The position numbers were made by a program. Positions 15,001-18,000 of a stretch of DNA of 64,000 nucleotides are shown one piece after another. The stretch's first letter is position 1; every line of letters begins with the position of its first letter. The stretch is from Enterobacteria phage VT2phi_272, in the sequence record NC_028656.1. One strand, given 5' to 3'.

Positions 15001-18000
15001 AAGGGAAGCAGGTCATCCCATGTCTTGTTAATTTCGGTGATTGCCTGAGTGATCTCATTGATAATCTCATCTGATGCGGGAGTGACGTCACGCTCAGGGA
15101 TGTGATCAGCATTCAGGATGATACCTTCACCGCCCTGAGTGTTCAGGTAGTCGATAGCTGTATCCAGGCGATCGCGACGGGGCCAGTATTTGCTGGCGCG
15201 CTTAACAATGGCTTTTCTGGCCATTTCATCGGGGAAACTATCCCACGGGCTACTTCCTCCGTTATTTCCGGCTTTGCTGCACGCCCTGATGACCTCGATT
15301 TCCCTGTTGCTCATCTCTTCGGTCAGATAGTCGCCTTCGGATGTTTTTACGACACAATAACCGCCAATGCGTGCGCCCCTGTCGACGAATGGGTTGTATT
15401 TGTGCGTGGGGGCGCAGTCAATACCGTTGGACTCGTAAATGTCCTTCTCGTAAACAAGTTTGCATTGCCCCCACTGAATGGCTCCTGTGACCTGTGCCAG
15501 ATGCAGAAGCCCCATATAACTGATATCCAGGCATACAGCCTTTTTTCGTGGTACCAGATACGCCAGCTTGCTGGCCGGGTTCAGGGTTATGCCTATGGCG
15601 GCAACATTGATGATAGCGTTCTGTGCGCTGGACAGATTTCCCCGTGCTGTGTCAGCCAGAAAGGAATTTTTCTGGAATTGCTGAATTGCAAACTGACTTT
15701 CCTTAGCCCATGTCAGCGTCGGTTCAGTTAATGCTTCGCAGAAAAAGCGCTCCTGCTGTTTAACAAATTCAACGATATCGAACATTTTTATTGGTCCTGA
15801 AAATCAGAAAGGACAGGGGGAGAATTTCCTCTCCCATTCTTCTTCCGCCCGTGCATAGGCGATCGCTGAGATATAATCGTTGTAAGCCTCTTCCGCTTTA
15901 TCGCCAGTAAGTGCCAGCTGGGCTTCTTTGGGTAAAAAAAGGCTGCTCATAAGCAATGGTTTATCGGGGAACATGCTGATAAGCTCCTGCGCCCGATCGT
16001 CAATCCATTTATCCTTTTCATCCTGAATGTGCTGATTAACCCAGCGACGCTCCTCTATTCGGTCACAGGTGAGGTATGCGTTCATGGCGGAACTCCTGAT
16101 TTCGGTTAATGCATTAAATTAATTTGTCGGGAAAGCTGACAGACAGGGCAGTCACATTCTTCCTCCTGCTCCTTAGCGAAGAAATATGCAGCGGCCTGTA
16201 ATGCGATGTCTTCTGGATTTTCTGCGATAAACATAACATTGCCTTCCGTATCAATAACAGAAATAGCCTCATCAGGCAGGACAAAAAAATAGGCGATGAT
16301 TTTATCATCCATAAAAACTTCACCCATTATAGTTTCTGCTGGCGTTACGACGCTTTTTACATTGATATTAATTTTTTGATTGAGCATGATATTTCCTTTC
16401 AGGCTGGTGAGATTAACGGCTGGCCTTTATGGTTCAGGTAAACTTCTATTGCATCTGAAATAATGCGAATTTTTTCAATCAGTGAATGTGCGTAAAGTGC
16501 ATTATTAACGTTAGCTGACGCCATGTAATAACGCCCGTTGTAAAGAATTGCTGTGCCGGGTTTAACGTCCTTGCGAGAAACTAATATGGTTCCGTAGTGA
16601 GGTTTGAGCATGACAAATCCTCCGGTTAATTAATCCAGATATTTAATTTAATCCCCGATATATAATCGGGGAGAGATTTAATTAAAGATTAACGTTGAAA
16701 CCAAAGCGGGAAGATTTTTCCGATGTGCGGGAAATATCCAGCAATTTACGGCGCATTTCTTCCGTCAGATGCTTGAAGGCGTTAAATTCGGCGACAGCGG
16801 CGTCAACGTTATAGCCCTTGCTGTGTAGCTCGTTGAGGATGCGCATAGTTGGGCTTGGCATGTCGAAGAGTACGGAAGCATCAAGGCTGATAACCTTGCG
16901 ATCAACATAGTTCATCGTGGCGTAGGGGTGATGCTCTGAAAACCACGATAAAGGAAAATTGATATTCATCGCAGGAGAAGACAGAGCCAGTTGTTTCTGT
17001 TCCCATAGCTGTTTTTCCATGCGATCGAATTCAGCAATATAGGCTTCCTTGAATGCAGCTGCTTTTTTACCAGTGAAGCCCATCACCAGGAAGACGAATC
17101 CGTTTTTGGTGATTTGGTACATTGGGCGTTGTTCGCCTTTGGCGTCGGTGTAGGTAACGTCCTCAAAATTGAGGGCGTTAAATTTCTCTGAGCATTCAAT
17201 ATTTGCAATGGCACGTAATACGTTATCGTGTCGCTTGCAAAAATATTCGGCAACGGCAAAGGACGTAGTAACAGCGCGGCCATTGGAAATGGTGATTTCA
17301 GGTTGAGAAAGGACTGGGATAGTAGCCATAATGGCAGCCTCCTTGATTGGTGATTAATAACCACCGCAGGAGGTGAGAAGCTCGCTGGCGGTGGACTGTA
17401 CAGGGTTCTCACAACTGGCAATCAAGGGAACCAGCCCGACCGAAGTCGGCCCCATACAGCCCACCATTGATAAGATGTGCGTGTATGTCGATACAAAAAA
17501 AGACGCTGGCGCGTCTGTATCGCCTCGATTGTCAGCGGGGTGAGAATCCCGACACCCGTTTTATAAGGTGTTCGCCCAATATAGCCCCGGCATCACACGC
17601 AGTCAATACCGTCCTTTCTCGGAAATGCTTTGGCGATGTGGCAGGTGGGAGACCCATTTCGACCCGATTCGGCCTACTTATCTTCAGCAATAGTCCCTCG
17701 GGCCTCGCCGCTTTACGTGCGACATATTCCCGTCCATGAACCCTTCACCACACCCCAAAACATTCCCTGTATTGGTCAGCGCCAACTTCCTGCCAGTGTT
17801 GCCCGTTCTCACGCCGTTCTCGCTCTCGCGCGGGGATACTCTCTCATCGACCGGATCGCACCCGATGATACAGCACGTTTACGTGTAGGGGTCTAAACAG
17901 GTCATTGACGCTGTAAAGCTCCAGATTGTTAAAGAGCATTTTGCGGCGGGTTAAGTCGCGCCGTACGACTGATTTATGTAGCCCTGTGTAAGGGCGCGAT

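Follow-up and report, generated by a model that had tools for sequence, protein, structure and literature searches.

IsrK and C4 RNAs in tandem ahead of two antirepressor-type genes of a Stx2a prophage: a probable counterpart of the phage P1 immI control module

On the minus strand of Enterobacteria phage VT2phi_272 (sequence record NC_028656.1), positions 17606-17330 lie directly ahead of a Rha-family gene of the antirepressor type, and the question this locus raises is whether RNA made from it controls that gene and, if so, which RNA. The stretch of 64,000 nucleotides that was analyzed, hereafter the window, is an argW-integrated Stx2a (Shiga toxin 2a) prophage of the Oslovirus type. The initial annotation had described a single small-RNA unit at this site; a structured RNA unit is indeed present, but it consists of two tandem RNAs, IsrK and then C4, rather than one. 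The module runs from a sigma-70 promoter through a terminated RNA of ~77 nt and a second structured RNA to the leader of the Rha-family gene, and we conclude that it is probably an antisense control module of the P1 immI type for an antirepressor-type gene. A second module of this kind lies 12 kb away within the same prophage.

The whole window was scanned with Rfam at gathering thresholds, and two covariance models exceeded their gathering scores in each module. In the module ahead of the Rha gene (copy 2), isrK (RF01394) matched 17571..17496 (minus strand) with 58.7 bits against a gathering cut-off of 50. The corresponding RNA, of ~77 nt at 17495..17571, has two 5' hairpins, and by sequence both copies possess the promoter of their own and the Rho-independent terminator expected of an isrK member. 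The promoter of copy 2, PisrK, reads TTGACT-17-TATATT (17578..17606, minus strand; -35 at 17606-17601, -10 at 17583-17578) and came from a promoter scan, while the terminator at 17516-17495 is a G+C-rich hairpin, AGACGC/GCGTCT, followed by a T-run at 17516..17501; both elements had been described correctly from the start. Against a shuffle expectation of 1.3 in each case, there were 4 promoter-like and 6 terminator-like sites. Across an alignment of 50 modules, the -10 element is conserved at a fixed distance from IsrK hairpin 1. Within IsrK, the loop of hairpin 2 presents a box termed a1 (UUCUCAC, 17546-17540), and a single-stranded box termed b1 (CAAUCGAGG, 17531-17523) lies just 5' of the terminator. 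The -10 element sits 32 nt 5' of a1, and the curated P1c4 promoter of phage P1 likewise places its -10 element 32 nt from a1.

The RNA running from promoter to terminator, which had been taken for the whole small RNA, is thus IsrK only, and the likely repressor, C4, is located 3' of the terminator, where it would be reached by read-through. C4 (RF01695) matched 17471..17384 (minus strand) with 77.1 bits against a cut-off of 45, and the model was matched over its full length (1-87) in both copies. Aligning this segment to the curated 77-nt C4 of P1 gives a predicted mature RNA of 79 nt at ~17465-17387. Its folding energy was compared with 200 shuffles, none of which folded as well (z = -4.66 for copy 2 and -5.87 for copy 1); IsrK folds depart less from shuffles than C4 (z = -2.0 and -1.7, respectively). 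In both copies, the minimum-energy and centroid folds agree with the family structure, in which a long closing stem surrounds two hairpins and a single-stranded junction. The closing stem of copy-2 C4 has 16 bp and a 3' tail GCC, compared with 17 bp and ACC in P1; the tail of copy 1 is ACC. The loop of C4 hairpin 2 carries b' (CCUUGAUUG, 17427-17419), and the single-stranded junction carries a' (GUGAGAA, 17412-17406).

Downstream of C4, the leader of the Rha gene contains a second pair of boxes. The a2 box (UUCUCAC, 17379-17373), a perfect 7-nt complement of a', is presented in the loop of a leader hairpin, CCACCGC...GCGGUGG, at 17361..17394 on the minus strand. Because one strand, the 3' strand of the closing stem of C4, also serves as the 5' arm of this hairpin, the leader hairpin and the C4 fold are mutually exclusive in an unprocessed transcript. 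The b2 box (CAAUCAAGG, 17349-17341) overlaps the Rha Shine-Dalgarno sequence AAGGAGG (17344-17338) and is a 9-nt perfect complement of b', lengthened by wobble pairs to a duplex of -14.5 kcal/mol; the b' duplex reaches this energy on its own b1/b2 sites. It also matches the position of the curated b2 of P1, which is annotated there as "repression of icd ant translation". The presumed target, a Rha-family regulator/antirepressor-type gene of 215 aa (16682..17329, minus strand), is followed by kil. The P1 record lists the P1c4 promoter, a1, b1, the 77-nt C4 (misc_RNA 48343-48419), a2, b2, icd, and ant1/ant2 in this order, and an alignment of P1, both window copies, and the Gifsy-1 isrK locus was collinear throughout.

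Copy 1 (whole module 5377..5647, minus strand) was delimited by Rfam, promoter, and alignment. Its PisrK reads TTGACG-18-TATATT (5647..5618; -35 at 5647-5642, -10 at 5623-5618) and is followed by IsrK at 5611-5538 (RF01394, 53.0 bits against the cut-off of 50; terminator 5559-5538), which contains a1 (UUCGAAC, 5589-5583) and b1 (GAAACC, 5574-5569). C4 occupies 5512-5429 (mature ~5506-5432; RF01695, 70.1 bits against 45), with b' (UGGUUUC) at 5470-5464 and a' (GUUCGAA) at 5457-5451. In the leader, a2 (UUCGAAC, 5425-5419) and b2 (GAAACCA, 5398-5392) are both 7-nt complements, and b2 ends 3 nt ahead of the Shine-Dalgarno sequence GAGGG (5388-5384). The presumed target on the same strand is an ORF6N-type antirepressor gene of 225 aa (4699..5376).

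The claim that this unit and the element at 5380-5650 are two diverged copies holds: they are collinear, with 58% identity over 268 aligned positions (66% in IsrK, 61% in C4, and 44% in the leader), and the similarity is not that of a simple repeat. The orientation is the same, and the spacing is nearly so, with 242 nt from the IsrK 5' end to the ATG in copy 2 and 235 nt in copy 1. Where the C4 stems differ between copies, the differences are compensatory, for example CCGAC/GUCGG versus GAGCU/AGCUC in hairpin 1. The two copies carry different boxes, which makes separate specificities probable, and an IMG/VR contig that also holds two modules (L042) has both boxes differing between them.

To see whether the boxes change together in related loci, we turned to IMG/VR. 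A C4-specific pattern, which has two exact matches in the window against 0.00 expected, retrieved 120 loci; the 75 distinct modules among them represent 16 a' types and 36 b' types, paired in 50 combinations. The score was the share of the 75 modules in which perfect complementarity extends over 7 nt or more, in cognate and in non-cognate pairs. For a2, 99% of cognate pairs scored against 0.8% of non-cognate pairs; the values were 89% and 0.8% for a1, 89% and 6.9% for b2, and 63% and 3.5% for b1. The offsets of the boxes from the C4 core are nearly fixed at about -75, -59, +23, and +54. Cognate boxes therefore covary three ways, among C4, IsrK, and the leader. The structural alignment of 50 sequences, one module per box combination, recovered IsrK hairpins 1 and 2 and the C4 structure in its consensus fold, with compensatory changes in 21 of 37 pairs; such changes occur in IsrK hairpins 1 and 2 as well. 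In the a2 leader hairpin, 91% of cells are paired and six of nine pairs show compensatory changes, a score that was reached in none of 500 shuffles, whereas slid controls were only 26-67% paired. The promoter, terminator, folds, complementarities, and covariation are thus all present in the sequences.

By sequence, RNA starting at the sigma-70 promoter at 17606-17578 has IsrK as its first ~77 nt, closed by the intrinsic terminator. By analogy with P1 and Gifsy-1, read-through transcripts would extend into C4 and then on into the Rha mRNA, and C4 would be excised as a stable RNA of ~79 nt; in P1, the C4 precursor is a substrate of RNase P at its 5' end. Free C4 would pair through a' with a2 in the loop of the leader hairpin and through b' with b2 over the Shine-Dalgarno sequence. 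This pairing would block Rha translation, and premature termination of the untranslated mRNA would be probable, as in P1. We regard this repressor step as likely. The a1 and b1 boxes of IsrK would compete with the leader for C4, which would make IsrK a decoy, or anti-antisense RNA, and the antirepressor would be made once IsrK is in excess of C4; we consider the chances of this decoy step to be even. C4 bound to a1/b1 of the nascent RNA may in addition feed back on read-through, as in P4. Copy 1 would have the same build with different a and b boxes, gating an ORF6N-type protein with the same C-terminal domain. With different boxes and its own target in copy 1, the prophage would carry two separately addressed RNA gates.

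Several observations weigh against this interpretation. The IsrK matches pass the Rfam cut-off by a narrow margin (58.7 and 53.0 bits against 50), compared with 79.3 bits in Gifsy-1. The c4-a1b1 model (RF03163) found nothing at gathering score in the whole window and nothing at E <= 1 in 17300-18200, although the a1/b1 boxes that this motif stands for are present. Regarding separate specificities, copy-2 a-box duplexes reach -8.4 to -8.6 kcal/mol on cognate and -4.1 to -4.3 on copy-1 targets, and those of copy 1 reach -7.9 on cognate and -4.3 to -5.2 kcal/mol on non-cognate targets; for the 7-nt b' of copy 1, however, the energies overlap (-8.5 to -8.9 cognate versus -7.8 to -8.7 kcal/mol non-cognate). 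Duplex energy as a test of orthogonality is therefore decisive for the a boxes and not for the short b box of copy 1. Copy-2 C4 also retains -11.1 kcal/mol on the Shine-Dalgarno region of copy 1, so some cross-talk is possible. The steps of read-through, C4 excision, translational block, and relief by IsrK are carried over to this prophage from P1 and Gifsy-1, and the antirepressor activity of the Rha and ORF6N proteins on the CI of this phage is suggested at the level of annotation. The remaining objections come from the published work on Gifsy-1.

The strongest alternative, which we consider unlikely, is a cis/trans switch of the Gifsy-1 type that operates without a separate C4 repressor. 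The IsrK segment would pair with the "orf45" segment in an inactive read-through transcript, and free IsrK would open the ribosome-binding site of an upstream open reading frame (ORF) whose AUG lies at the C4 5' end; translation of this ORF would open the antirepressor start. No other model for an isrK locus has experimental support, and the account of the Gifsy-1 authors is a cis structural switch with a 45-codon upstream ORF coupled to anrP (PMC4825925). Moreover, the AUG(N9)AUG motif is retained in the two copies of the window, as is a frame that stays open across C4, and alternative folds exist in which the 3' strand of the C4 stem pairs with a downstream GGUGG segment.

To relate this model to C4, Gifsy-1 positions were numbered with the IsrK 5' end as origin, and the published mutations (PMC4825925) were located on that scale. 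By Rfam, isrK lies at 34316..34240 (79.3 bits) and C4 at 34214..34131 of Gifsy-1, and c4-a1b1 (RF03163) lies over isrK with 48.1 bits against a cut-off of 46.7. A107 and AUG119 fall on the two AUGs at the C4 5' end, and the 45-codon orf45 covers C4 and the a2/b2 leader, ending in an ATGA overlap with anrP. Since G28 and G31 are in a1 (UUGGCGU) and C159 and C162 are in a' (UACGCCAA), the published validated pairs G28:C162 and G31:C159 are a1:a' pairs. The a' mutations C159U and C162U derepress, the "compensating" a1 mutations restore repression only partly (224-327 units versus 4), and a stable RNA, STnc1160, is found downstream of IsrK, for which the authors raised a termination role like that of P4 CI (PMC4825925). 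IsrK supplied in trans raised anrP translation 139-fold (Hershko-Shalev et al. 2016, PMC4825925). All four observations fit the C4 model, and the incomplete repression of the double mutants is what is expected if a' must pair with a2. Hfq binding and trans activation of antirepressor translation are known for the IsrK of Gifsy-1 only (PMC4825925).

Two Gifsy-1 results speak the other way. The cis a1 mutations G28A and G31A raised basal expression (PMC4825925), so a1/b1 may also act in cis through folding or read-through. Co-expression of the orf45/STnc1160 region strengthened IsrK toxicity, which a pure sponge model does not predict (PMC4825925). The cis/trans switch in turn offers no explanation for the covariation of a2 with a' and of b2 with b' (99% and 89% of cognate pairs) or for the position of b2 on the downstream Shine-Dalgarno sequence. 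A conserved peptide across C4 was rejected as a candidate, as length and frame vary among the 50 modules: the upstream frame ranges from 14 codons to still open at the segment end (55-57 codons), and the b' loop varies in length by non-multiples of three. The Gifsy-1 authors themselves note that orf45 is conserved at the nucleotide level and not at the amino acid level (PMC4825925). In the window, the frame stops 24-27 nt before the ATG, without the Gifsy-1-like overlap of stop and start. With a frame across C4 that is not conserved in length and that ends early here, coupling through an upstream ORF is unlikely to be a general step.

The two remaining explanations are far less probable. That the modules are decayed or silent relics, mosaic pieces inherited by this Stx2a prophage that no longer regulate, could account for RNAs left unannotated in most phage records and for a position at a mosaic junction where phi80 has gene N; yet promoter, terminator, and the complete fold of C4 persist in both copies despite 58% identity, as does perfect complementarity of the boxes at each of the three sites, their C4 stem differences are compensatory, and the copy-2 module is present in 247 of 5426 complete Escherichia coli genomes, with 31 records at >=99% identity. 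The other idea is that IsrK and/or C4 act mainly in trans on host or other-prophage transcripts, as Hfq-dependent small RNAs or sponges in the manner of AsxR and AgvB, with the local antirepressor a secondary target. In its favor, the name given to the family in Rfam is "isrK Hfq binding RNA", several trans-acting small RNAs and sponges are encoded by Stx phages (PMC4104026, PMC7873438), and copy-2-type modules number up to three per genome, so cross-prophage action on identical boxes is expected. Against it, the boxes covary with directly neighboring sequence at set spacings, as local targets would, and no host target came to light, though no search aimed at one was made. C4-mediated control of the adjacent gene is the preferred reading.

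The downstream genes had been described as antirepressor-type in both copies. For copy 2, the assignment to the Rha family stands, with Pfam Phage_pRha (2.1e-32, N-terminal domain), TIGR02681 (2.6e-34), and PHROG families 995, 1760, and 373, which are labeled transcriptional regulator or anti-repressor; the same gene is called "antirepressor" in Stx2a_F765 and "Rha family" in ArgO145. The copy-1 gene is of the ORF6N type, not Rha (Pfam ORF6N, 1e-19, N-terminal domain; PHROG 1760 anti-repressor, 1.6e-122). The two proteins have their C-terminal 118 aa in common, with 69% identity (BLASTP 8e-60). The suggestion of dual RNA-gated antirepressor switches finds broad support, as the modules are homologous to P1 immI and to the isrK locus of Gifsy-1 and the two copies differ in their boxes, with the antirepressor part of it standing at annotation level. 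A third antirepressor-type ORF at 6721-7398 (minus strand; PHROG 1726, 1e-81) is without a Pfam match and without a C4 or isrK match upstream, so not all antirepressor-like genes here would be RNA-gated.

In 26 of the 50 modules, the frame of the AUG at the C4 5' end (positions 17465 and 5506 in the window) meets no stop codon before the extracted segment ends, by which point it has passed the downstream gene's start. Most of these 26 frames are in frame with the ATG of the downstream gene, as is the case in 35 of the 50 modules overall. Gene callers can therefore yield N-terminally extended "antirepressors" that engulf C4. The PHROG 995 profile is ~100 residues longer N-terminally than the Rha protein of the window.

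The copy-2 module lies behind an early-left leader (17622..17938, minus strand) that is 95% identical to the phi80 leader and ends just 5' of PisrK. Because of this arrangement, early-left (pL-type) transcription would, upon induction, extend into the module. The leader contains a perfect rrn-type nutL boxA (TGCTCTTTAACAA, 17938-17926), followed by a boxB-like hairpin (17885-17874), and the phi80 record annotates pL, nutL boxA, and the nutL core. A promoter scan gave a likely pL, TTTACA-17-TATATT, at 18046..18018, all on the minus strand. About 260 nt of the leader are 100% identical in phage F004, in which the flanks differ. The IsrK-C4-Rha module occupies the position of phi80 gene N at a mosaic junction, and tblastn detected no N antiterminator homolog in the window (E > 0.8). 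A 65-aa ORF at 17844-18041 was considered as an N substitute and dismissed: it has no Pfam, PHROG, or NCBIfam match, and the stretch is the phi80-like nutL leader.

Two protein regulators of the module were also considered. Control by LexA, as for the Gifsy antirepressors, was rejected, as no CTGT-N8-ACAG box is found near either module; the three matches in the window lie elsewhere, a count equaled or exceeded in 7 of 100 shuffles. For control by CI, the oR palindrome CATATCACC-N3-GGTTATATG is absent near either PisrK at up to three mismatches, a weak negative given that the operator consensus was guessed, and one further match at up to three mismatches lies at 18121-18141. Repeats in 17560-21560 are short two-copy families only and probably due to chance, such as GTCAATACCGTC / GTAAATACCGTC at the -35 elements of PisrK and the likely pL. 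These -35 regions (17601-17613 for copy-2 PisrK and 18041-18053 for the likely pL) have GACGGTATT(G/T)AC in common, 12 nt with one mismatch, which may be chance or a shared regulator site. Genes for a restriction endonuclease and a DNA methyltransferase (18190-20609, minus strand) lie between cI (20704-21417) and the likely pL, with a terminator at 18171..18150; in lambda, rexAB hold the corresponding position.

Near copy 1, a ParD-like antitoxin gene (5701-5958, plus strand; Pfam ParD_antitoxin, 1e-07) diverges from PisrK and has no obvious partner toxin, and a HigA-like helix-turn-helix gene follows it at 6373-6678. Promoter-like sites overlap back to back here, at 5638-5665 (plus strand) and in the copy-1 PisrK (5647-5618, minus strand). 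Elsewhere in the prophage, window positions 1-2759 contain two integrase genes on either side of tRNA-Arg(CCT) (1320-1394); that at 1..1194 (minus strand) belongs to a neighboring element and that at 1515-2759 (plus strand) to the Stx prophage. The methyltransferase gene at 3589-4215 is intact in the window, whereas the same gene in PA2 has an extra IS3-family insertion. Three tRNA genes (27183-27434) precede stx2AB, and STnc100 (207.7 bits, plus strand) and AsxR (88.1 bits, minus strand), a known small-RNA dyad of Stx2 phages, directly follow it at 28840-29099, AsxR being 29047-29099. An ALIL pseudoknot at 33762-33878 (minus strand, 121.5 bits) is the frameshift signal of an IS3-family insertion sequence within the prophage.

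The element is a member of long-known families (P1 c4; Rfam isrK, C4, and c4-a1b1) rather than a discovery; c4 of P1 was described in 1990. Default Rfam thresholds suffice to find it, and one Stx2 phage record, that of F004 (LC710661), already annotates it, with "isrK Hfq binding RNA" and "C4 antisense RNA" at the exactly homologous position, 5' of the same 648-nt coding sequence and kilR. Positions 16600-17700 are 100% identical in phages PA2, PA8, Stx2a_F765, and ArgO145, and the PA2 record lists the target genes as gp10 "anti-repressor" (copy 1) and gp34. Most Stx phage and RefSeq E. coli records carry no annotation of the intergenic RNAs, and the features listed as overlapping the copy-2 module in E. 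coli genomes are protein-coding only (a Rha family regulator and one hypothetical protein). The literature searched turned up no study of IsrK/C4 gates in Stx phages; the main text of the Hfq-CRAC small-RNA paper on enterohemorrhagic E. coli (EHEC; Tree 2014) and a later review of EHEC small RNAs do not mention isrK, C4, or antirepressors. Our additions are the map of a and b boxes in both copies, figures for the covariation in three ways, a covarying a2 hairpin in competition with the C4 stem, the assignment of Gifsy-1 orf45 to C4, and the location of the module behind pL-nutL.

Prophage induction, which releases Shiga toxin, can be set off by antirepressors with CI left uncleaved. If the gates work as in P1 and Gifsy-1, they would be one level at which Stx2a phage induction and superinfection immunity are controlled. 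A more general and tentative possibility, which we hold to be the less probable case, is that IsrK, C4, and the leader form a three-part, freely re-addressable RNA lock in which IsrK would serve as a sponge dedicated to the antisense repressor that the phage itself encodes. Oslovirus-type Stx2a prophages, a lineage that includes the O104:H4 and O103:H25 outbreak phages, would then carry two orthogonal locks on two antirepressors with one shared effector domain, one of them directly behind pL-nutL, where related phages have gene N. Such locks would add a CI-independent RNA layer that sets spontaneous and cross-prophage induction, hence Stx2 output, and Gifsy-1 orf45 would be the C4 RNA plus the a2/b2 leader and not a coding upstream ORF. 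For annotation, isrK and C4 should be marked here, and upstream extension of the "antirepressor" ORF through C4 should be avoided in gene calling. The a/b box pair could also serve as a simple typing marker for prophages able to cross-regulate.

Comparing the module with known systems, the EHEC sponges AgvB and AsxR resemble IsrK as short terminated phage RNAs that titrate another small RNA by target mimicry. However, they target small RNAs of the host core genome (GcvB and FnrS), whereas IsrK would titrate a phage RNA of its own transcript, and the families are unrelated. The Stx-phage RNA 24B_1/EcOnc53, said to target "d_ant", was set aside as unrelated; it is located between lom and vb_24B_43 in the late region. 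The CI RNA of satellite P4 (seqA/seqC), cited by the Gifsy-1 authors as a structural analogue of IsrK (PMC4825925), is similar to the proposed C4 in being a processed leader RNA of its own operon that pairs with sites both up- and downstream. Its outcome is transcription termination of replication genes, whereas that of C4 would be a translational block of the antirepressor. The c4-a1b1 motif (RF03163), defined as "a1, b1 targets of C4 antisense RNA" (Weinberg et al. 2010, PMC2864571), has two hairpins with a1 in the second loop and lies upstream of c4, as in the window. It overlaps isrK in Gifsy-1, and the window RNAs are captured by the isrK model instead.

Like the window, Gifsy-1 has isrK with its own promoter, then C4 after ~25 nt, and then an antirepressor-type gene. 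The IsrK terminator is leaky in Gifsy-1, and the a1:a' pairing was genetically validated there. The published Gifsy-1 model does not include C4, and the box type is different (a UUGGCGU, b UCACCG). The frame across C4 overlaps anrP there by ATGA, in contrast to the early stop in the window. The Gifsy-1 module lies beside the Q-like gene antQ and is followed by isrJ, whereas copy 2 follows pL-nutL, and no isrJ follows in the window. Several features separate the window from P1: there is no icd gene, and C4 would be aimed directly at the Shine-Dalgarno sequence of the regulator gene; the downstream proteins are Rha and ORF6N types with a common C-terminal domain rather than Ant1/Ant2; no C1-type operator was found at the promoter; and there are two modules, with the module placed in the early-left operon of a lambdoid Stx2a prophage. 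The a1/b1 segment of P1 is not described as a separate terminated small RNA, yet a terminator-like hairpin and U-run align there. The immI operon of P1/P7, with its P1c4 and P51 promoters, and the window are alike in the order and spacing of all RNA elements. In both, C4 folds into three helices that leave a' in the junction and b' in a loop, a2 follows a few nucleotides 3' of C4, and b2 is at the ribosome-binding site of the first downstream gene. C4 is co-transcribed with its own target in P1/P7 and would be so in the window, and the specificity boxes vary between heteroimmune relatives.

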